Origin: Alphaproteobacteria bacterium
GTDB lineage: Bacteria > Pseudomonadota > Alphaproteobacteria > UBA7887
Direction: 5' to 3'
NCBI GenBank assembly: GCA_965200095.1
Contig: OZ241350.1
Span: 1,912,215 to 1,976,214 of the forward strand
Length of the DNA stretch: 64,000 nt
Part shown: piece after piece, positions 3,161-43,384 of the stretch
Layout of the letters: the number at the start of each line of letters is the position of its first letter
Position numbering within the stretch: the stretch's first letter is position 1
Translations under genes and position numbers: made by a program
Notes under the pieces: model-generated
Database searches by the model: none
What the model was told of the DNA's origin: nothing
What the model saw: only the letters and a program-made list of their open reading frames with translations

Positions 3161-3561
3161 TACGGTTTCCGGGCGTCGGAGGCGGGCATGCTATGGGGCG
3201 AAAGGCGAGAGCGTCAACGCGCTTGCGCGCCGCCCGGCGCGGCGCTATCGTTGCCGTGTGGCAGCGACGGAGCATGCTCCCGGTTTCAACGCCCTCGCCT
3301 GTGCGCGCAAGCTCAAGACGGCCGATGCCGAAGCCGCGCGCACTATCCGCGACGGCCTGGCCACGAAAGCCCGCCTCGATGCGGGTTTCGACAGTTTCGA
3401 AACAGTCTCGACGCGCGTCTTGCCGCTCTCGCGAAACCCCGGCGCGCCGAACGGATATGGGAAATCCGGTTCGGGATAAGGTTCAATCGCGCTCGCGACT
3501 CCCGGGACAGGACCATGGACCGCAGCGGAACGCCGAACCCCCCGACGCCGGACGCTTGCGC

Positions 3562-6500
3562 ATGTTGACGGCGGAAGAACGGGACGGGCTGGTTTCCGAG
3601 CTCGCGTCGCGTCCCGGCCACGAGAAAGTCCGCGCCTTGCTGCACCGGCTTCTCGTTGGCGGCCTCGGCGCCGACAGCAGGGACATCGATTTCGAGAAAC
3701 CGGCGCCGGAAGTGCGCGGGCGCATCGATGCCCTGCTCGGCCGCACGGTGTTCGAGCTGAAGTCCGATCTGAGGCGCGAACGCCGGGACGCCGAAGACGG
3801 CTTGACGCGGTATCTCTCCGAACGCGAGGCCCGAACCGGCGAGAGCTGGGTCGGCATCGCCACGGACGGCGCGGAATTCGTCGTCTTTTCCCTTCGCGGG
3901 GGCCGCGTCGCGGAGATCGGAACGCATCGCGTGGACCCGGAGGCGACGCGGGCTTCGCTGGCCTGGCTGCAAGGCGCGGTCGCTCTCGGCGAAGAGATTT
4001 TGCCCGATCCGATCGCCGTCGAGCGCGAATTCGGACGCGGGAGCCTGGCCGCGAGGCGCGCCCTCGACGGTCTCGGCGATCTGTGGGGCTGTATCGGACA
4101 AACGCCCGAGGCGCGTCTGAAGCGCGAATTGTGGGGCACGCTGCTGGGCCTTGCCTACGGGGCGGAGGTCGGCGACGACGCCCTGTTCCTGCAACACACC
4201 TATCTCGCCATCGTCGCCAAGTCCGTGGCCGGTGCGGCGATGATCGGCGAGCCGCCCCGCGACGCAGCGGCGCTTCTCCACGGCGCTGCGTTTTCCAACC
4301 TCGGCGTCGGCGGCCAAAGCGAGCCCGACTTCTTCGATTGGGTCCTCGCCGCCGGGGACGGACGGGAACTCGTCATGCGGGTCGCGCGGCAGGTCAACCG
4401 GTTCCGCCTGCGCGATATCGAGGTCGACATCCTCAAGGCGCTTTACGAAAGCCTGATCGACCCCGAGACCCGTCACGATCTGGGCGAATACTATACGCCG
4501 GACTGGCTGGCCGCCCGCATGGTCGCGGCCGCCGTGGACGACCCGCTGACGCAGCGTGTCGTGGACCCGGCCTGCGGTTCGGGGACCTTCCTGTTTCACG
4601 CCATGCGGGCCGTTCTCGCCGCGGCCGGCGCTTCGGGGTTGTCGCCGGCGGCTGCGGCGCGGCTCGCGGCCCGGAACGTCGCCGGGATCGATATCCACCC
4701 GGTGGCCGTGATTTTCGCGCGCGTCACCTGTCTGCTCGCGCTCTTGCCGGCGCTGCGCACGGAACACCCGGGCGATATCGCCCTTCCGGTGTGGCTCGGC
4801 GACGCGCTGCAATGGAATCTGGTCCGAAACGGCGGGAACGGGGAACAGCCCGACCTCCTCGCCGGCGACGACGCGCTGGAAATTTTCGTTCCTGCGGTCT
4901 CGCCGAGCGAACCCGTCCCCCAGCGTCTTGACGCAACGACGCTCCGTTTCCCCGCCGCCGTCGCCTCCGAGACAGGACTTTTCGACCGCGTGCTGAACGC
5001 AATGATCGAGTCCGGGATCGAGTCCGGCGCGCGGTCGGAAATAACCTCCGACTTCGCCGCCTGGCTGGGCGCAAACACGACCGTAGCCGCCGACGACAGA
5101 AAAATTCTATGCGCAACCTGGGAGACGATGCGCCGTCTACAAGGAGAAAACCGCGACCACATCTGGGGCTATGTGGCCCGCAACCTTGCCCGGCCCGTAT
5201 GGCTGGCGTCCGAGGCGCAAAAGGCGGACATCGTGATCGGCAATCCGCCCTGGGTCTCGTTCCGTTACATGAGTCGGGATTTTCAGGAGCGCTTCCGCGA
5301 GGAGTGCCGGGCGGCGCAGCTCTGGGTCGGCGGCAAGGTCGCCACCCAGCAAGATCTTTCGGGATATTTCTACCTGCGCGCGACGGCGCTGTATCTGCGT
5401 CGGACGGGGAGGATCGCCCTGGTCATGCCCTATGCGGCGATGTCGCGCCAAGCCTATGCGAAGTTCCGCGAAGGGCCGGTCGCGCGCGCCGGCTGCGTCG
5501 AATCCCGTCTCCGCTTCACGGCGGCGTGGACGTTCGGGCCGGAAGTGTCGCCGCTTTTCCCGGTTCCGAGTTGCGTGCTGTTCGCCGCCCTTCACGACGG
5601 GCGGGAGCCGGCGCCGCTGCCGGCCCGGGTGACCGCCTTCGCGGGCGCGCTCCCGAAACGGGACGCCGACGCCCGGGAAGCGGACGCGAGTTTGATGGAA
5701 GAGGAGACGACGTGGCCGATGGAGGCGTCGGATCGCGGAGGATCCCCTTACCGGAAAAGCTTTCGGAACGGCGCTATTCTGGTTCCCCGGCGCCTGATAC
5801 TGGTGGAACCCGCGCCGTCGCCGGGGAGGCTTCCGCCCAGCCCTGCCTTTCCGCTGGTCCGGGGGAGGGCGGGCAACCTGGACAAGGCGCCCTGGAGGAC
5901 CATAGAGCCGCCGCGGGGCGCGGTAGAGGCGGCGTTCCTGCGCCCCGTGTTGCTCGGCGAATCCATCGCCCCGTTCCGCGTCCTGGCGCCACTGTGCGCG
6001 GTCATTCCGTGGGACGCCGAACGGGAAGAACTGCTGGACTCGGAACAGGCCGCCGGCCGGGGCTATCGGAGGCTCGCGCGCTGGCTCGAACGAACCGAGG
6101 AATTGTGGGAACAGAACAAGCGCAGCACCTTGACGCTTCTCGAACAATGCGACTATTACGGGAAGTTGTCCGGCCAATTCCCCATTGCCCCGATCCGCGT
6201 CGTGTACACGACGGCCGGGACCAATCTCGCGGCGGCGACGGTCCGGGACAAGACCGCGGTAGTCGATAACAGACTCTATTGGGCTGCCGCCGAAAGCCTT
6301 GACGAAGCCAATTATCTCTGCGGCCTTCTGAACAGCGCCGCCGTGCAGGCCGGCGCGGCGCGCTATCAATCTCAAGGTCAGTGGGGCGCACGGGATTTCC
6401 ACAAATACGTCTTCAACCTGCCGATCCCGCGCTACGACGCCGGCGACGCGCTGCATCGCCGGCTGGCGGACGCGGCTGCGACGGCGGCGGAGGTCGCGGA

Positions 6501-6627
6501 CCGGGTTCCCGAAAGGGAAGGCGAGTATTTCACCCGCACGCGCAAGCGCGTCCGCAACGCCCTCGCCGAGCACGGCGTCGCCGCCCGTCTGGAGAAATTG
6601 GCGGTCGAATTGCTTGACAGGGCATAA
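3562..6627 (+). CDS. Type IIG restriction-modification enzyme (MmeI-like; fused PD-(D/E)xK nuclease and N6-adenine DNA methyltransferase, ~1020 aa)
   Basis: N-terminal D...ELK nuclease-like motif (RIDALLGRTVFELKSDL). SAM-binding motif I DPACGSGTFLFHA and catalytic motif IV NPPW (IVIGNPPWVSF) in the central region. Long C-terminal region consistent with a target-recognition domain. Start set at the ATG at 3562; the ORF opens at 3193. Confidence 0.65.
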   Translation: MLTAEERDGLVSELASRPGHEKVRALLHRLLVGGLGADSRDIDFEKPAPEVRGRIDALLGRTVFELKSDLRRERRDAEDGLTRYLSEREARTGESWVGIATDGAEFVVFSLRGGRVAEIGTHRVDPEATRASLAWLQGAVALGEEILPDPIAVEREFGRGSLAARRALDGLGDLWGCIGQTPEARLKRELWGTLLGLAYGAEVGDDALFLQHTYLAIVAKSVAGAAMIGEPPRDAAALLHGAAFSNLGVGGQSEPDFFDWVLAAGDGRELVMRVARQVNRFRLRDIEVDILKALYESLIDPETRHDLGEYYTPDWLAARMVAAAVDDPLTQRVVDPACGSGTFLFHAMRAVLAAAGASGLSPAAAARLAARNVAGIDIHPVAVIFARVTCLLALLPALRTEHPGDIALPVWLGDALQWNLVRNGGNGEQPDLLAGDDALEIFVPAVSPSEPVPQRLDATTLRFPAAVASETGLFDRVLNAMIESGIESGARSEITSDFAAWLGANTTVAADDRKILCATWETMRRLQGENRDHIWGYVARNLARPVWLASEAQKADIVIGNPPWVSFRYMSRDFQERFREECRAAQLWVGGKVATQQDLSGYFYLRATALYLRRTGRIALVMPYAAMSRQAYAKFREGPVARAGCVESRLRFTAAWTFGPEVSPLFPVPSCVLFAALHDGREPAPLPARVTAFAGALPKRDADAREADASLMEEETTWPMEASDRGGSPYRKSFRNGAILVPRRLILVEPAPSPGRLPPSPAFPLVRGRAGNLDKAPWRTIEPPRGAVEAAFLRPVLLGESIAPFRVLAPLCAVIPWDAEREELLDSEQAAGRGYRRLARWLERTEELWEQNKRSTLTLLEQCDYYGKLSGQFPIAPIRVVYTTAGTNLAAATVRDKTAVVDNRLYWAAAESLDEANYLCGLLNSAAVQAGAARYQSQGQWGARDFHKYVFNLPIPRYDAGDALHRRLADAAATAAEVADRVPEREGEYFTRTRKRVRNALAEHGVAARLEKLAVELLDRA

Positions 6628-6699
6628 CGCTTGCAGACTGTGAACGCGCGCTCAACCCGGGACCGAACAACAGCAATCCGGGCGTTCCGCTCCTTGTCA

Positions 6700-6900
6700 G
6701 CGGCGCTCAACGGATGCGTCGAACGCAACAACGGCGCATGGCGATACGAATTCTACGCGACATGGGACATCCCCGACCACGACCTCGATCGAATCAACCG
6801 CCGGATCGACGCCTTCGCCGACGAGTTCAACGACTTCCGACCCCACAACGCCCTCCACGGACAAACACCGAACAGGCGCCTTCAATCCCTCACAGTAACC
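6700..6900 (+). pseudogene. transposase/integrase-core C-terminal remnant (rve-type; IS481/IS3-like)
   Basis: YEFYATWDIPDHDLDRINRRIDAFADEFNDFRPHNALHGQTPN matches the conserved C-terminal end of DDE integrase-core transposases. No upstream catalytic domain is present. Confidence 0.5.
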
Positions 6901-6999
6901 TCTGCGCAAGGCCCGGATTTTTTCGGGGTCCGGTCGCGCCCGGCGGTTGCCTGTTCGGCTCGACTTCCGGCGGCAGCGCGAGGCGCCTCGATTCGATCC

Positions 7000-8090
7000 G
7001 GCTTGTCGTTGTCCGGACATGTTCGTTCCGCGAAAGAGCGTGTGAAGAAATTGAAAGGCTCCACTAATCTTCGTCATTCCCGCGAAAGAACGTGTGAAGA
7101 AATCGGACGGCTATACAAATACTCGTCATTCCCGCGAAAGCGGGAATCCGTTGCGGCGTTTCCGTAATAAAAACGAGCCGATATAGCGGACGGCCGCCTC
7201 CGGATTCCCGCTTTCGCGGGAATGACGAAGTATTATTCGGTGGGTATTGTCTTTACAATGCCGGCGCTTCGGCGATCCGTACGTCACGATGAGAGACGCC
7301 CGATTTCTTCACACGCTCTTTCGCGGGAGTGGCGAAGTATTGTTCCATATGCGTCGTTATGATCTGTCGGTGAGTTCGGGAGCGTCGTAAAAACGCGGGA
7401 ACGCGATCCTGCGGCAAGCGAAACCGGTTATGCAGAGGTCTCACTTCGTCATTCCCGCGAAAGCGGGAATCCGGAGGCGGCCGTCCGCAATACCGGCCCG
7501 GTTTTCTTTGTGGAGACGACGCAACAGATTCCCGCTTTCGCGGGAATGACGAAGAGTAGTAGCGTCTCTCGATTTCTTCACGCACTCCAAAGCGGGAATC
7601 CGGAGCGGCCGCCCGAAAGACTAATCCGCTTTTTTCTTGCGGAAACACTGCGCCGGATTCCCGCTTTCGCGGGAATGACGAGTGTTTGTAACGCTATTCG
7701 ATTTCTTCACACGCTCTTTCGCGGGAATGGCAAGGTATTATTTGGGCGTTGCCGTCCTTCACTACGGTGATTCTTGAGTTATCCAGCCGTCGTAGTGAGA
7801 GACATCCGATTTCTTCACATGTTCGAAAGCGGGAATTACCGATGCAGGGGCCGGATTCTCGCAATTCCGTCACGCATTGTCGTGCGCCGACGGCGGGTTC
7901 GGAAACGCCGTAAAGCGCCGGGAACGCTATCCTGCCGCAGGCGAAACGGGTTATGCAAAGGTCTTGCACAGTCAACGAGACGCCCACAGATCGCCCCACG
8001 CCCCATATGTCGTGAAGCCGCGCGCCCGCTTGCCGGGACCGGGGACGGGCCATAGGGTGCCCCGCAGGGTCGAATCCGTGAGGGAAGGCG
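7000..8090. repeat. cluster of small interspersed palindromic repeats (REP/Correia-like) with core ATTCCCGCGAAAGCGGGAAT
   Basis: Ten or more copies, in both orientations, of the core palindrome and of a second module TCATTCCCGCGAAAGAGCGTGTGAAGAAATCG. There are no credible ORFs; translations such as SFPRKRESV and IPAFAGMT recur as repeat artefacts. Confidence 0.8.
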
Positions 8091-39005: not shown

Positions 39006-39971
39006 ATGCCCGCCGTCCTGCGCATGCCCGAGTCGCGCTTCGCGTCGCTTCCGGGCTATCCCTTCGCGCCTCGCTGGCTCGAGGAGACGGCGGGGTTTCC
39101 CGGCGCCCGCATCCATTACGTGGACGAAACCCCGGTCGCGGCGAAGCCCGAAACCGTGCTCTGCCTCCACGGCCATCCCACCTGGAGCTACCTGTTCCGG
39201 CGCATGATCCCGCGCCTCGTCGCGGCCGGCTACCGCACCGTCGCCCCCGACCTGCCGGGGTTCGGGAAATCGGACAAGCCCGTCGACGAATCGCTGTTCA
39301 CCGCGGGTTCGCTGCGCGCCTCGGTCGTGGACCTCATCGAACGCCTCGACCTTCAGGACATCGTCGTCATGGGCCACGACTGGGGCGGGACTCTGGCGCT
39401 GACCCTGCCGCACGCCGTCCCGCAGCGCATCGCCGGGCTGGCGGTCATGAACTGCGTCTTGCCGACGGGGGACCGGCGCCTGCCCGAAGGCGCGCTCGGC
39501 TGGCGCGCCTACAATGCCGACAACCCGGACCTGAACGTGCCGGGATTGATGGCGAAGGCGAACCGGATACTCACCTTCGGCGAGTGCCGGGCCTATGGCG
39601 CCCCGTTCCCGGACGCCGCGCACAAGGCCGCGGTGCGCGCCCTGCCGGCGCTGCTGTCCGAAGACCGCGACGCTCCCGGGGCGGCGCTGCTGCGCGAGGC
39701 GCGCGACTGGCTCGCCGGGTCGTGGAACGGCGCCTCGCAGATCGTCTGGGGTATGCGCGACCCCGTGTACGGCCATTCCGTGCTGCGCCGCCTTCACGCT
39801 CTCCTGCCCGCTTCGCCGAAACCGCTGACCCTTGAACATGCCGGTCATTTCACGCCCGAATGGGGAGACGAGTTCGTCCTCGGGGCGATGGAGTCGATAG
39901 CCGCGCAGATCGCCGCACGGCGCACCGCCGAAGCGGCGGGCGAAGGGGAGGGCGCTCATGCCTCCGCATGA
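39006..39971 (+). CDS. haloalkane dehalogenase-like alpha/beta hydrolase
   Basis: HGHPTWSYLFRRMIPRLVAAGYRTVAPDLPGFGKSDKP and nucleophile motif GHDWGG. Confidence 0.65.
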   Translation: MPAVLRMPESRFASLPGYPFAPRWLEETAGFPGARIHYVDETPVAAKPETVLCLHGHPTWSYLFRRMIPRLVAAGYRTVAPDLPGFGKSDKPVDESLFTAGSLRASVVDLIERLDLQDIVVMGHDWGGTLALTLPHAVPQRIAGLAVMNCVLPTGDRRLPEGALGWRAYNADNPDLNVPGLMAKANRILTFGECRAYGAPFPDAAHKAAVRALPALLSEDRDAPGAALLREARDWLAGSWNGASQIVWGMRDPVYGHSVLRRLHALLPASPKPLTLEHAGHFTPEWGDEFVLGAMESIAAQIAARRTAEAAGEGEGAHASA

Positions 39972-40641
39972 CGACGCATCGCTGTTCGCGCGCCTCCGCG
40001 CCTCGTGCGCGAAAGAATGGCGCGCCTATTGCCGTCATCGCTTCGTCGCCGGCATCGCCGACGGCAGCCTGCCGGAAGGCGCGTTCCGCCATTACCTCGT
40101 TCAGGACTATCTGTTCCTGATCCAGTTCGCCCGCGCTTATGCGCTCGCGGCGTACAAGGCGGACAGGGTAGAAGACATGCGCGCCGCCGCGACCACGCTT
40201 TCCGGCATTCTCGATACCGAAATGGGCCTGCATGTCCGCTATTGCGGAGAATGGGGACTCGACGAGGCGGAGATGGCGGCGACCCCGGAAGCGCTGGAGA
40301 CCGTCGCCTACACCCGCTTCGCGCTGGATTGCGGCCAGGCCGGCGATCTGCTCGATCTGCTCGTCGTCCTCGCGCCCTGCGTCGTGGGCTATGGCGAGAT
40401 CGGCCGGCGCCTCGGCGCCGACCCGGCAACGAAGCGCGAGGGCAACCCCTATGCGGGCTGGATCGAAACCTACGCCGCCGCCGACTACCGGGCGGTTGCC
40501 GACGGCGCGCGCGCGCAGCTCGACCGTCTCGCGGACAGGTCCGGCGCCGCGGCCCGTTTCCCGCGCCTGAGTGCGCTCTTCGCCCAGGCCACCCGGCTGG
40601 AGATCGGCTTCTGGGACATGGGCTGGGCGGCGGGCCGATGA
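39958..40641 (+). CDS. tenA: TenA family thiaminase II / aminopyrimidine aminohydrolase
   Basis: FRHYLVQDYLFLIQFARAYALAAYKA is a typical TenA helix. Catalytic Cys context VLAPCVVGYGEIG. Confidence 0.7.
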   Translation: MPPHDDASLFARLRASCAKEWRAYCRHRFVAGIADGSLPEGAFRHYLVQDYLFLIQFARAYALAAYKADRVEDMRAAATTLSGILDTEMGLHVRYCGEWGLDEAEMAATPEALETVAYTRFALDCGQAGDLLDLLVVLAPCVVGYGEIGRRLGADPATKREGNPYAGWIETYAAADYRAVADGARAQLDRLADRSGAAARFPRLSALFAQATRLEIGFWDMGWAAGR

Positions 40642-40836
40642 GGGAGCGGCGCCAGGGCATGGTTTCCCAATTTGTGGCGTGGCGTGCTTGACACGCCGTA
40701 TGATCGGCAATAGCCTGTGCGCGATTGGATAAATGTCCGACAGTCGTCGGGTCGTTACATGTATCTTGAACGGTTGCCCGACCACGCGACGGCAATGTGT
40801 CGATGCGTTCGCCGAAAAATAATGATGGAGGAGAAA

Positions 40837-41705
40837 ATGTCGAAGAAATCCAAGAAAGGTCCTGTCGTAGTATCGGTGATCAACCTTAAGGGCGGGGTTG
40901 GAAAAACAACGGTCGCGGCACTGCTGGCGAGGCATATCGCGAGGGAAAATTTGAATGTGCTGGCTGTGGATTTGGACCCGCAAGCAAATTTGAGTCAAGC
41001 TCTTATGACTGAAAGCGAGTACATCCAATTTATGCATAATAGAGAACCCTAACCATTGTGGAGCTCTTTAATGACTACATACCGCCGTCTCGTGACCGAG
41101 AGGCTCCTACTCGTTTGGACGACGACAAAATCGTGAAATCGGTAGGGTATGGAGAAAGACTGCACCTTATTCCGTCAAGATTTGATTTCTCCGATAATTT
41201 AATCTGTTCGAATAGCGTCGATGCCAGAATTTTTGCGAAATTCATTTCCAGAACCCCTAAAAATATGGACCTCGTCCTGATCGACTGTGCACCGACCGAG
41301 TCGATAATCACCAAAGCCGCCTATCATGCATCCCGTTACATCCTGCTTCCGGTGCGAACCGAATTTCTCTCGACCATTGGATTTCCCCTGTTGAATGAAT
41401 CTTTGAAGAAATTCAGATCCAACAATCCCGGCCATGATATCGATGTATGTGGCGTCCTGATCAATAACAGTAGAACAAGTGGATCTCCACGGGGGCCCCA
41501 TCATGATGATTCCCTGAACGACATCCGACAGAAGGCTGAAGAGTACGGCTGGCCGGTAATGGAAGAGCAGATGTTTCATTCCGACGGATACCCGAAGTTG
41601 ATGAAAGAGGAGTATCCTCATCATGTTGGAAATTCTTGGTATGAATTCCCGCCAATCGCCGAGGAATTTATGAAAACGGTCGGACTGTCTTCGCGGAGGA
41701 AGTGA
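40837..41705 (+). pseudogene. ParA/MinD-like ATPase interrupted by a frameshift and in-frame stop (TAA at 41048-41050)
   Basis: The N-terminal ORF has the deviant Walker A VINLKGGVGKTT and DLDPQANLS. The downstream ORF, in another frame, continues with LIPSRFDFSD and Walker B DLVLIDCAP. The region is low-GC relative to its flanks. Confidence 0.6.
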
Positions 41706-41707
41706 TC

Positions 41708-42190
41708 ATGCAGCGCGACACCCTGCGGAAATTGCTTTCCACCCTCATCGACGATTGCGGGTACGACGCGGTTCGTAAGTCCGTGGAAGCCCTCGATCCC
41801 GGAGCGGCGAGCGCCCGTGCTCCGCGAGGGGCGATTGATAAGAGAAGAGGAAGGCCGCGGGCGAAATTGACGGCGGTTGCCGTAGTGGATTCTTTGGGTA
41901 TTTCGGACGCGGAAAAGAAAGATGCGCTGATGGTTCTTGCACACAAATACGATGCGAAGGAATTTATGCCGAACATCAACCATATCCGTGCTTTCGTGGA
42001 GCGGGAAGGGGTTGACGTTTCCTGTGTCAGATCGAGACAACAGGCTACACATACGGTGTTCAGAAACCTGGGGAATTGGGAAACACGAAAATTGCAGGAA
42101 TTGGAGACGAGGGGCGCGTACGGTCGCCCGAAATCGCTTTCCGTTATCGCCGGCGCTATCGAATCCGTCGGGAGGCAAAATCGCCTTTAA
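41708..42190 (+). CDS. hypothetical protein (160 aa) with AT-hook-like KRRGRPRAK motif, translationally coupled to the ParA-like gene
   Basis: ATG lies 3 nt after the ParA-like stop, preceded by GGAGGAAG. No recognised family. Confidence 0.4.
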   Translation: MQRDTLRKLLSTLIDDCGYDAVRKSVEALDPGAASARAPRGAIDKRRGRPRAKLTAVAVVDSLGISDAEKKDALMVLAHKYDAKEFMPNINHIRAFVEREGVDVSCVRSRQQATHTVFRNLGNWETRKLQELETRGAYGRPKSLSVIAGAIESVGRQNRL

Positions 42191-42205
42191 TTTTTCCCGA
42201 CGCGC

Positions 42206-43384
42206 CTATGGGCTGCCCCCGCCGGTCTTGCGATAGGGCGAGAACTCGCGCTCCACGGTTTCGATCTCCCAATCGACGTGACGACGTTCGTGTTCGAGGT
42301 AATCGGCGACGGCATCGCGGAATCGGCTGTCGACGATCCAGTGCGCGCTGTAGGTCCGCCGCGGCATGTAGCCGCGCTGGACCTTGTGCGGCCCTTGCGC
42401 GCCGGCCTCCACCCATTCGAGGCCGCGTTCGATGGCGAAATCGATGGCGCGGTAATAGCACGCCTCGAAATGCAGGAAGTCGTGGCGCTCAATGCACCCC
42501 CAATGGCGCCCGAACAACGCGTTGTCGCCGATCAGGTTCAGCGCGCCCGCGATGTAGCGCCCGTCGCGCCGACACATCGCCAGCGCCACCCGGTCGGCGA
42601 GACGCTCGTGCAACAGTCCGAAAAAGGCGCGGTTGAGATAGGGCGCGCCCCATTTGCGCCGCCCGGTGTCCATATAGAAACGGTGGAAGGCGTCCCAATG
42701 CTCCGGGCGCAGCGCGTCGCCGGTCAGCATCTCGATATCGATGCCGGACGCCCGGACGCCGGCGCGCTCGCGGCGGATGGTCTTGCGTTTGCGCGAATTG
42801 AGCGTCGCCAGGAAGTCGTCGAAACACCCGTAGCCGCGGTTGCGCCAGTGGAACTGCTCGCCGGTGCGCTGAAGGAACCCCGCTTCGCCGAGAGCGCGCC
42901 ACTCCGCCTCCGTGGGGAAGGTGACGTGGAGCGACGACACGCCGATGCGCCCCGCAATTTGGACAGCGGCCGAAATCAGCAGCCGCCGCGCATGGGCCGG
43001 GTCCTGTCCGGGCGCCGTCAGCAGGCGGCCTCCGGTCACCGGCGTGAACGGCGCCGAGCACTGGAGTTTGGGGTAGTAGCAGCCCCCCGCGCGTTCGAAG
43101 GCGTCGGCCCAGCCGTGGTCGAACACATATTCGCCGTAGGAATGGTTCTTGAGATAGAGCGGCATCGCCGCGACGAGCGCGCCCGCCGCGTCCTCGACGA
43201 CGATGTGCTGCGGCAGCCACCCCGTCTCGGCCGAACAACAGCCGCTCTCCTCCAGCGCGTCGAGGAAGGCATGGCTCACGAACGGGTTGCGGGCGCCGTC
43301 CAGGCGGTCCCACGAGGCGGCTTCCAGCTCGCCGAGGCGCGTCAGCGTCCGGGCGGCGTAGCGCGGTTCGGGGCAGGGGGGCAC
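42206..43384 (-). CDS. GNAT-fold acyltransferase (COG3146 / FemAB-like, PF04339 family)
   Basis: About 390 aa; the call rests on overall similarity by recall, not on a specific motif. Moderate confidence. Confidence 0.55.
   Translation of the reverse strand: MPPCPEPRYAARTLTRLGELEAASWDRLDGARNPFVSHAFLDALEESGCCSAETGWLPQHIVVEDAAGALVAAMPLYLKNHSYGEYVFDHGWADAFERAGGCYYPKLQCSAPFTPVTGGRLLTAPGQDPAHARRLLISAAVQIAGRIGVSSLHVTFPTEAEWRALGEAGFLQRTGEQFHWRNRGYGCFDDFLATLNSRKRKTIRRERAGVRASGIDIEMLTGDALRPEHWDAFHRFYMDTGRRKWGAPYLNRAFFGLLHERLADRVALAMCRRDGRYIAGALNLIGDNALFGRHWGCIERHDFLHFEACYYRAIDFAIERGLEWVEAGAQGPHKVQRGYMPRRTYSAHWIVDSRFRDAVADYLEHERRHVDWEIETVEREFSPYRKTGGGSP

Follow-up and report, generated by a model that had tools for sequence, protein, structure and literature searches.

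ParA/MinD ATPases are a general bacterial engine for positioning DNA and large cargos, and to our knowledge every new adaptor family described for them so far has led to a new cargo or a new use. Type Ib partition loci (ParF/ParG of TP228, ParA/ParB of pB171 and delta/omega of pSM19035) encode a deviant Walker A ATPase without an N-terminal HTH and, directly downstream and translationally coupled to it, a small basic partner. Partners of the ParG/ParB type have a flexible tail that activates the ATPase. Integrative islands (Soj of PAPI-1 and ICEclc-type elements) have ParA/Soj genes at their ends, adjacent to a tyrosine recombinase and the repeat of an attachment site; islands of this kind span tens of kilobases and carry transfer genes. 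Orphan ParA/MinD pairs (McdA/McdB, PpfA/TlpT, ParC/ParP) consist of a chromosomal ATPase and a small partner with a basic disordered segment, both genes being under purifying selection. Such pairs lie next to the genes of their cargo, in carboxysome and chemotaxis operons, and are inherited vertically. The two-gene cassette described here shares features with each of these systems and departs from each of them.

The cassette was found in a window of 64,000 nucleotides, the whole stretch of DNA that was analyzed, from contig OZ241350.1 of an Alphaproteobacteria bacterium. Its location is chromosomal, with tenA on one side and a FemAB-like gene on the other, and Pfam matches to both flanking genes (Table 1) agree with a preliminary description of the window, made from the sequence alone, that had placed it between tenA and a GNAT-like gene. 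The same description had singled out the segment as a low-GC islet unlike its surroundings, which the measurements bear out. GC is 0.504 over positions 40660-42200 and 0.699 for the remaining window. The profile runs at 0.43-0.57 over 40650-42200 and at 0.65-0.75 to the left and right, and 500-nt intervals inside the islet fall as far as 5 standard deviations below the window mean (0.695, s.d. 0.047). GC3 is likewise lower in the ATPase (0.53) and partner (0.61) genes than in tenA (0.83) and the FemAB-like gene (0.87). The non-coding leader in which the GC drop begins is conserved in the loci that occupy the same site (L001, L010 and L110), and no conservation was detected against cassettes at other sites. 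At the 3′ end, the putative terminator hairpin is 15 nt away from the convergent FemAB-like gene. Repeats in 40500-42400 did not rise above chance-level 10-14-mers and formed no centromere-like array. Neither an integrase nor flanking repeats of at least 13 nt were detected around the window cassette, a search for tRNA genes found none, and the whole window gave no match in Rfam. An empty version of the site was sought by scanning JGI metagenomes with the FemAB-like protein as query; this returned 80 loci, none of them above 66% identity and none with an adjacent tenA.

Table 1 Coordinates of the islet features and of the host genes on either side of it.
Feature	Position	Strand	Basis or remark
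tenA (TENA/THI-4 family), left flanking host gene, outside the islet	39958..40641	+	Pfam TENA_THI-4, 4e-46; GC3 0.83
Non-coding 5′ leader of the islet, start of the GC drop	40660..40836	+	Composition profile
ATPase, N-terminal fragment, 71 codons, NLKGGVGKTT and DLDPQ motifs	40837..41052	+	ATG 40837 to TAA 41050-41052
Lesion, 2-nt AA insertion, CCCT[AA]CCATT	41051..41052	+	Alignment with the intact L010 allele
ATPase, remainder, residues ~72-288 in shifted frame, Walker B-like LIDCAPTES	41053..41705	+	Stop TGA 41703-41705
Shine-Dalgarno GGAGGAAG of the partner, inside the 3′ end of the ATPase gene	41695..41702	+	Sequence reading; 6-13 nt upstream of the ATG
Partner gene, 160 aa, intact	41708..42190	+	ATG 41708, 2 nt past the ATPase stop
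AT-hook-like basic motif KRRGRPRAK, in the predicted disordered linker	41840..41866	+	Residues 45-53
Terminator-like hairpin and T-run, overlapping the partner stop codon	42171..42198	+	Consensus scan, pattern match only
FemAB_like / GNAT Acetyltransf_6 gene, right flanking host gene, outside the islet	42206..43384	-	Pfam FemAB_like, 1.3e-160; GC3 0.87

The upstream gene had been proposed to be a ParA/MinD-like ATPase, and its motifs and profile matches place it in the ParA/MinD (deviant Walker A, SIMIBI) superfamily. The deviant Walker A motif with its signature lysine occupies codons 16-25 and is kept in all homologues. Homologues of the ATPase form at least 3,600 clusters. The repaired protein matches Pfam AAA_31 (1.9e-28; 100 bits, cut-off 27) and CbiA (4.7e-17; 62.6 bits, cut-off 25.4), as well as the ParA-like PHROG_164 (7e-37). 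Its closest solved relatives are Soj, an archaeal ParA and delta (2oze), and ParF (4dzz) is also detectable, so that two type Ib proteins are among them. However, for the NCBIfam equivalog model ParA_partition it reaches only 73.7 of the 180 bits that the cut-off demands, and the RepA, SopA and PrgP models remain far under theirs. The first in-frame start in the list of open reading frames is a GTG at 40717; we assigned the start of the ATPase to the ATG at 40837.

In the window this gene is broken. The frameshift that had been located at about 41040-41060 proved to be an insertion of two nucleotides by which the TAA stop codon is generated. The shifted frame opens at about 41053, its first start codon being the GTG at 41058. 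An intact 288-residue allele (P0012) occupies the same site in L010, on a contig that is 99% identical, and reads HNREP-S-IVELF across the junction; used as a tblastn query, it matched 41043-41702 at 98.6% identity. The two alleles differ by 7 synonymous and 0 non-synonymous substitutions. An error of sequencing or assembly, with the gene intact in the organism, would fit the existence of this closely similar intact allele, and the preliminary description had envisaged that resequencing might restore the frame. We regard such an error as extremely improbable. L110, which comes from a separate assembly and a distinguishable strain (99.38% identity, with a different codon of the GAG/GAA pair next to the lesion), has the insertion as well. 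The lesion lies outside any homopolymer and is no homopolymer slip. Because L110 carries the same insertion, we count it as a real and, from the sequence comparison, recent polymorphism, with the intact allele coexisting in the population. A programmed frameshift was also considered and rejected: for translation to continue, the ribosome would have to shift by -1 or +2 at CCC-TAA, where no slippery heptamer is found, and the allele of L010 is just 2 bases shorter. A single polypeptide containing both the Walker A and the Walker B regions is thus encoded in L010 and not in the window, where the 71-residue fragment is cut off. Read from the sequence, the ATPase of the window has been inactivated very recently, leaving the partner as the one intact protein of the pair that can be produced; the ATPase is a recent pseudogene, and the partner gene probably still functions.

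The partner is a genuine, newly described family of basic, helical proteins. Its coupling to the ATPase gene, proposed earlier from the short spacing and the ribosome binding site, recurs as a short stop-to-start spacing in homologous loci, and its homologues form 502 clusters at E≤1e-3 (at least 500 at 50% identity). No match was found in Pfam, NCBIfam, PADLOC, PHROG or the PDB, RefSeq labels the protein “hypothetical protein”, and a screen of long homologues for fused Pfam domains found none. A Phage-MuB_C match in one member (6e-6) and a sub-threshold prok_STING match in another were treated as noise. In one homologue, P0252, the C-terminus is extended by a segment with a PIN-like appearance on visual inspection. 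An AlphaFold2 model calculated from a 100-sequence alignment (pLDDT 88.8, compared to 54.5 from a 12-sequence alignment) predicts an all-helical protein in which a helical hairpin at the N-terminus is followed by a basic disordered linker and, at the C-terminus, by a domain of six helices. The predicted fold is neither RHH nor ParB-like, and no relative was found among solved or viral structures. The protein had been introduced as containing an AT-hook. A motif with the RGRP core and basic flanks is indeed present in the linker of the window partner, but it does not define the family: among 100 aligned members, only 3 have the [RK]G[RK]P core, whereas 94 have a basic linker (pI>8); that of the S. 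meliloti member is non-basic. The basic linker, together with a median pI of 9.7 across the family, is as expected of an adaptor that binds DNA or stimulates an ATPase.

We compared about 18 independent chromosomal sites. At all but one of them, a partner homologue directly follows a member of the ATPase subfamily or its remnant; the sole exception is L009, where no ATPase was found. The pairing holds across homologues with ATPase identities from 46% to 99%, and the two proteins diverge together, an ATPase identity of 65% corresponding to about 50% in the partner and 46% to 25%. The carriers include Nitrospira, Nitrospinota, Alpha- and Gammaproteobacteria and Thermodesulfobacteriota, at least five phyla in all, with the cassette at different chromosomal sites. 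Many of them are sponge symbionts, including named ones (PMC5649159). Cassette GC ranges from 0.42 to 0.55 and host GC from 0.46 to 0.70, the cassette lying under its host at almost every site. These comparisons mark the islet as foreign, low-GC, horizontally acquired DNA and fit the earlier suggestion of a two-gene cassette, ATPase plus partner, of foreign origin. The pair shares with McdA/McdB, PpfA/TlpT and ParC/ParP a chromosomal ATPase, a small partner with a basic disordered segment and purifying selection on both genes. Unlike them, it has no constant neighbor, is compositionally foreign and crosses phyla, and the untargeted searches made here revealed no relationship of its partner to their adaptors in sequence or fold.

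Most copies stand alone among housekeeping genes and lack an integrase; for this reason no excising element is evident. A few loci retain traces of one. In L014, direct repeats of 104 nt (at 5286 and 7555) enclose a unit of 2.3 kb that comprises a fragment of a tyrosine recombinase together with the ATPase and partner genes. L024 and L011 retain about 75 nt of the 3′ end of an L014-type integrase upstream of the ATPase, and in L029 a tyrosine recombinase is encoded 1.5 kb upstream. Flanking repeats were sought at all sites and found at L014 only. An integron cassette was considered and set aside, as inspection of the 104-nt repeats of L014 and of hairpins in L001 revealed no attC core GTTRRRY. 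The arrangement of L014, with the integrase remnants of L011 and L024 and the integrase near L029, resembles that of the ParA/Soj genes in PAPI-1 and ICEclc-type islands. In contrast to those islands, the L014 unit is only 2.3 kb long, most copies, including that of the window, are bare two-gene islets, and the partner belongs to a different family.

A decaying remnant of a type Ib-like partition locus from a plasmid or ICE, without present chromosomal function, had been one of the original suggestions. The membership of the ATPase in the ParA family, the small basic partner, the type Ib gene order and the integrases of L014 and L029 are all in keeping with it, as are the independent disruptions of the ATPase at many sites and the premature stop in the L005 partner (below). 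Translational coupling and the absence of an N-terminal HTH are further features shared with type Ib loci. Against this, the pair is present in 1 of the 72,556 plasmids of PLSDB, a 1.4-Mb megaplasmid, and in 0 of the viral contigs searched, so that homologues are not always plasmid-borne. Plasmid ParAs are at most 31% identical to the ATPase, which also falls far short of the ParA_partition cut-off, and the cassette differs from type Ib loci in its all-helical partner, neither RHH nor ParB-like as predicted, and in having no array of centromere repeats. Selection weighs further against a remnant. At fixed chromosomal sites, with dS up to 0.8, dN/dS ranges from 0.12 to 0.26 in the ATPase and from 0.14 to 0.29 in the partner, and it is still 0.27 for the partner between L001 and L005, whose common ATPase is destroyed. 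These ratios indicate that both genes are under purifying selection, a pattern that is not neutral decay. We therefore consider a partition remnant distinctly unlikely, and the selection estimates already largely refute it.

Loss of the ATPase has nevertheless been frequent. The gene is frameshifted in the window, L019 and L021, interrupted by nonsense mutations in L015 and L018, and deleted or replaced in L001/L005, L017, L027 and L028. The partner has a premature stop in L005. At least 10 loss events affect the ATPase and about 2 the partner, a roughly fivefold difference that is not significant (approximately p=0.14 by hand) given gene sizes of 1.8:1 and the ascertainment bias of finding loci with the partner as query. 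We accordingly rejected preferential ATPase loss as a sign of toxicity. The difference would otherwise be expected if the ATPase were the toxic component of a toxin-antitoxin-like addiction module, in which one product is harmful and the other neutralizes it, and a small, tightly coupled gene pair that is found by itself at unrelated locations, with horizontal spread and a patchy distribution, would suit such a module. Yet the partner remains under purifying selection where the ATPase is gone (dN/dS 0.27), while an orphan antitoxin should drift, and no toxin of the ParA class is known to us. An addiction module is consequently quite improbable.

Several copies have genes of defence systems as neighbors. 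On S. meliloti pSymA, the cassette directly adjoins SIR2-HerA (PADLOC, 4e-201 and 3e-291), FRG and VapBC; in L014, it lies beside a repeat-bounded segment with UzuA (8e-57); in L115, GmrSD is directly downstream; and in L112, MmeI-type restriction-modification genes are found within 6 kb. The pair might accordingly be a defence system against phages or other mobile elements, the ATPase acting as an NTP-dependent switch or sensor on DNA and the partner as effector or specificity subunit, and would have spread by horizontal transfer among bacteria of the phage-rich sponge habitat. Its distribution is defence-like, being patchy, cross-phylum and low in GC, with polymorphism for presence, absence and inactivation within populations; the PIN-like appearance of the P0252 extension would also suit this role, and sponge symbionts are reported to be enriched in defence functions (PMC5649159). 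However, neither protein has a recognizable effector domain such as a nuclease, NADase or pore. Against PADLOC-DB v2, neither gave a full-length match, and the one match of the ATPase, to PDC-M28B (1.3e-8), is limited to the P-loop (residues 5-60). Housekeeping genes are the neighbors at most sites, and three or four adjacent cases among about 18 are weak evidence, defence genes being so common in these genomes. The literature searched yielded no specific account of a ParA-like defence system or of a ParA cassette from sponges. We consider a defence role unlikely, though it deserves to be weighed.

Taken together, we tentatively favor, at somewhat short of an even chance, the interpretation that the islet is a self-contained, mobile two-gene module of a ParA ATPase and an adaptor that positions or segregates some cargo. 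The ATPase would act as an ATP-dependent dimer bound to a surface, most likely DNA. The partner would serve as adaptor and activator, holding the cargo via its basic linker or C-terminal domain and stimulating ATP hydrolysis, and the pair would position or segregate something. By analogy with the ParA/MinD systems that have been studied, we infer the interaction of ATPase and partner, DNA binding, the existence of a cargo and the biological role. The module probably arose from small integrative elements with the order integrase-ATPase-partner, and its cargo may be the DNA of the integrative element itself. Some observations run counter to this interpretation. No centromere-like repeats were found near the cassette, and flanking repeats occur at L014 only. 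The N-terminus of the partner is a confidently predicted helix and not a flexible tail of the ParG/ParB type. Long purifying selection at fixed sites is also unlike what pure maintenance of an element would predict once it is immobile.

The SIR2-HerA, Uzume and GmrSD neighborhoods are an equal fit to a defence role. It is conceivable, albeit unlikely, that the pair is instead a new mobile conflict system in unrelated sponge symbionts, acting in phage or plasmid defence or in element exclusion and not in segregation, and that the partner has a function independent of the ATPase. Such a function would account for the conservation of the partner after loss of the ATPase. In that case, functional constraints or counter-selection on the ATPase would lie behind both the persistently low GC of the cassette and the clustering of independent lesions at codons 71-78.

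The pair resembles a minimal mobile unit, 1.5 kb in length, of foreign GC in most hosts, and selected yet repeatedly lost. Resolving its role would bring to light a ParA-driven system or a conflict system of a new kind, and would also supply a marker with which gene flow in sponge microbiomes could be followed.

Composition sets the islet apart from the sequence around it. The composition profile gives a GC content of 0.43-0.57 across the islet against 0.65-0.75 on either side, and the islet as a whole has a GC content of 0.504 compared with 0.699 for the remainder of the window; the lowest 500-nt windows in the whole 64 kb are those of the islet, down to 5 sd under the mean. GC3 is 0.53 in the ParA/MinD-class ATPase gene and 0.61 in its downstream partner gene, whereas the two flanking genes have values of 0.83 and 0.87. 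The low-GC islet of the preliminary description is thus borne out, as is its tightly coupled gene pair, with the partner starting 2 nt past the ATPase stop. Elsewhere in the window, a second lower-GC stretch (0.55), with a truncated rve_3 integrase-core fragment (3.8e-10) and several repeats (translation ...SSFPRKRESV...), is probably IS debris or REP-like elements. The window also has a 1144-aa gene whose domains (N6_Mtase, Eco57I and MmeI_Mtase, with a GNPPW motif) make it a putative type IIG/IIL-like restriction-modification or BREX-PglX-like methyltransferase.

Features of the window and of cassette loci in other contigs (L numbers), with coordinates
Feature	Locus	Coordinates	Remarks
Low-GC islet	window	~40660-42200	
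tenA, flanking gene	window		Pfam 4e-46
FemAB_like/GNAT, flanking gene	window		Pfam 1e-160
ATPase, first ORF	window	ATG 40837 to TAA 41050-41052	encodes MSKKSKKGPVVVSVINLKGGVGKTT...
ATPase, remainder, other frame	window	up to TGA 41703-41705	
Partner gene	window	start ATG 41708	160 aa; preceded by GGAGGAAG
ATPase codons 71-78	window	41047-41080	EPSIVELFNGY
GAG-to-TAG in ATPase	L015	~7350	
1-nt A insertion in ATPase	L019	~7358	
ATPase replacement	L001	6880-7550	
ATPase replacement	L005	1-700	
ATPase-partner fusion	L027	7659-8507	Ca. Spongiihabitans
Repeat-delimited segments	L014	1275-7658	
P-loop protein	L014	2986-5283	
P-loop protein	L008	189-2501	
Pair and neighbours	L029	6282-14255	S. meliloti T073 pSymA
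Methyltransferase-like gene	window	3193-6627	
Second lower-GC stretch	window	6631-8000	

The ATPase of the window is frameshifted, as the preliminary description had it. In L010, a metagenomic contig covering the same chromosomal site with 99% identical DNA, the ATPase is intact (P0012, 288 aa), and the sole length difference is a 2-nt insertion in the window (CCCT[AA]CCATT, compared with CCCT--CCATT in L010), which itself produces the TAA stop. Neither a homopolymer slip nor a slippery site is present at the insertion. The same insertion, with the same split into 71 aa and 215 aa, was found in L110, assembled independently from a strain that can be told apart by its sequence (99.38% identity, adjacent codon different), which excludes a sequencing error. 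The frameshift is a genuine and recent polymorphism. Insertion aside, a comparison of the window ATPase with the intact allele shows seven synonymous and no non-synonymous changes; the gene was therefore strongly constrained until very recently. The window copy is a fresh pseudogene, with its ATPase just lost, followed by an intact partner.

Over longer distances, same-site orthologues have a dN/dS of 0.12-0.26 in the ATPase and of 0.14-0.29 in the partner, with dS up to 0.8. Between the window and L001, another relative at this site, dS is 0.36 in the partner and 0.26 in the flank; thus, the islet has long been inherited vertically here without GC amelioration. Cassette GC lies at 0.42-0.55 whatever the host GC, and is unameliorated at the window/L001 site over a dS of ~0.3. 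This persistent low GC may reflect a compositional constraint, such as binding of AT-rich DNA by the partner, or silencing.

In L001 and in L005, also at this site and with partners 87-90% identical to that of the window, ~1.1 kb of unrelated DNA has taken the place of the middle part of the ATPase, and the L005 partner also has a premature stop. Between these two loci, with the destroyed ATPase in common, the partner retains a dN/dS of 0.27 (23 synonymous and 22 non-synonymous changes), and this persistence suggests an ATPase-independent function of the partner. Two ORFs lie in the replacement, one of 187 aa that begins like a signal peptide and another that runs into the ATPase C-terminus as a fusion. 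Neither matched Pfam or PHROG, and a long hairpin, GGAATAYGGGAA..TTCG..TTCCC..TTCCCACGT, stands at the head of each unit. ATPase disruption has occurred independently many times, by frameshift (window/L110, L019, L021), nonsense mutation (L015, L018), or deletion, replacement or fusion (L001/L005, L017, L027, L028). In L027, an internal deletion fuses the first ~105 ATPase residues in frame to the complete partner domain as a chimeric ORF of 282 aa. Three of the five point lesions (the window/L110 insertion and those of L015 and L019) fall within codons 71-78, ~30 nt (p=0.019 by simulation for three of five inside eight codons), and may mark a hotspot or a coincidence.

A partner homolog lies 2-20 nt after the ATPase or its remnant at nearly all of ~18 independent chromosomal sites, including loci found via the ATPase alone (ATPase identity 46-66%); L009 is the exception, its partner having no detectable ATPase remnant in front of it. 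ATPase and partner form a unit. Hosts include Nitrospira and Albidovulum bins of the sponge Aplysina aerophoba (PMC5649159), Nitrospinota, Gamma- and Alphaproteobacteria, Thermodesulfobacteriota, Ca. Spongiihabitans, Ca. Porisulfidus and an Ianthella symbiont, with one copy on a Sinorhizobium meliloti megaplasmid. Cassette GC stays at 0.42-0.55 while host GC spans 0.46-0.70, and the genes on either side, mostly housekeeping, are different at each site. The pairing and the low GC relative to the host uphold the earlier suggestion of an uncharacterised foreign two-gene cassette. The alternative offered with it, a decaying plasmid-derived partition module or neutral remnant, is contradicted by purifying selection on both genes and by the near absence of the pair from plasmids (1 of 72,556 in PLSDB, where distant partner queries returned the same single record or no match). 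None of the viral contigs searched carried the cassette, and the identity of phage and plasmid ParAs to the ATPase does not exceed 31%. The cassette is foreign and mobile, yet neither plasmid- nor phage-borne.

The ATPase has a deviant Walker A with the signature lysine, DLDPQ and LIDCAPTES motifs, and matched AAA_31 and CbiA above threshold as well as a ParA-like PHROG. Since it falls far under every NCBIfam equivalog cut-off (ParA_partition 73.7 against 180) and its detectable solved relatives (Soj, archaeal ParA, delta, PF-32, ParF) align mostly via the P-loop region, it forms a distinct ParA subfamily. Homologs are abundant (3,614 matches at E<1e-10, numerous at 52-68% identity over the full length), many of them on Mb-sized chromosomes.

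For the partner, a word-seeded search returned only 11 clusters; a profile run exhaustively against 1.84 billion representatives recovered 502 (E<=1e-3), of which 177 reached E<=1e-10, most of them with 160-210 aa. No member has a consistent Pfam match, NCBIfam, PADLOC, PHROG and PDB sequences gave none, and the RefSeq member is labeled 'hypothetical protein'. An AF2 model from a 100-sequence alignment (pLDDT 88.8) places a helical hairpin at the N-terminus (3-29), followed by a linker of lower confidence (30-55) and a C-terminal domain of six helices. The family is basic (median pI 9.7), with a basic linker in 94 of 100 members. The AT-hook noted earlier does exist in the window protein (KRRGRPRAK), but only 3 of 100 members have the [RK]G[RK]P core and the linker of the S. 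meliloti protein is non-basic, so the AT-hook is a trait of the window's lineage and not of the family. In one representative, P0252 (451 aa), the C-terminus is extended by ~280 aa, and by eye the extension resembles a PIN domain, with IFFDTNVL close to its beginning and TCDRGY close to its end; this is a single case, under Pfam thresholds.

Some neighborhoods hint at the origin and role of the pair. In L014, a 2.3-kb segment comprising a tyrosine-recombinase fragment, ATPase and partner is bounded by 104-nt direct repeats; the repeat occurs three times (80-99% identity) and marks off two neighboring segments, of which the first holds UzuA (Uzume defence, 8e-57), an ORF of 67 aa and a P-loop protein of 766 aa. 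The arrangement resembles that of tandem insertions into a single attachment site. No flanking repeats, direct or inverted, were detected at the remaining sites, the window among them. L024 and L011, neither of which holds an integrase, keep the final ~75 nt of the integrase ORF of L014 in front of their ATPase gene, and the ancestral unit in this subclade was probably int-ATPase-partner. An uncharacterised P-loop protein of ~770 aa (GTTGAGKTT) lies directly upstream of the cassette in both L014 and the unrelated contig L008 (40% identity), with marginal Pfam and PADLOC matches only. The S. meliloti locus resembles a defence island, with a tyrosine recombinase and a VapBC-like PIN/Phd pair to one side of the cassette and, to the other, SIR2-HerA (PADLOC 4e-201 and 3e-291) together with an FRG protein. 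In L115, the partner has GmrSD downstream, and L112 carries R-M genes close by. The main rival reading, a role in conflict or defence, is compatible with these neighborhoods and with the evolutionary behavior of the cassette, but the pair matched no defence model and has no effector domain. A toxin-antitoxin reading of the pair is weak.

The class to which the ATPase belongs is very well known, and its subfamily is new; neither the partner family nor the two-gene cassette as such has been described, as judged by every library searched. Taken together, the best-supported reading is that of a self-contained module of mobile, integrative-element origin, comprising a ParA-type ATPase and a putative cognate adaptor, which would act as other ParA/partner pairs do.
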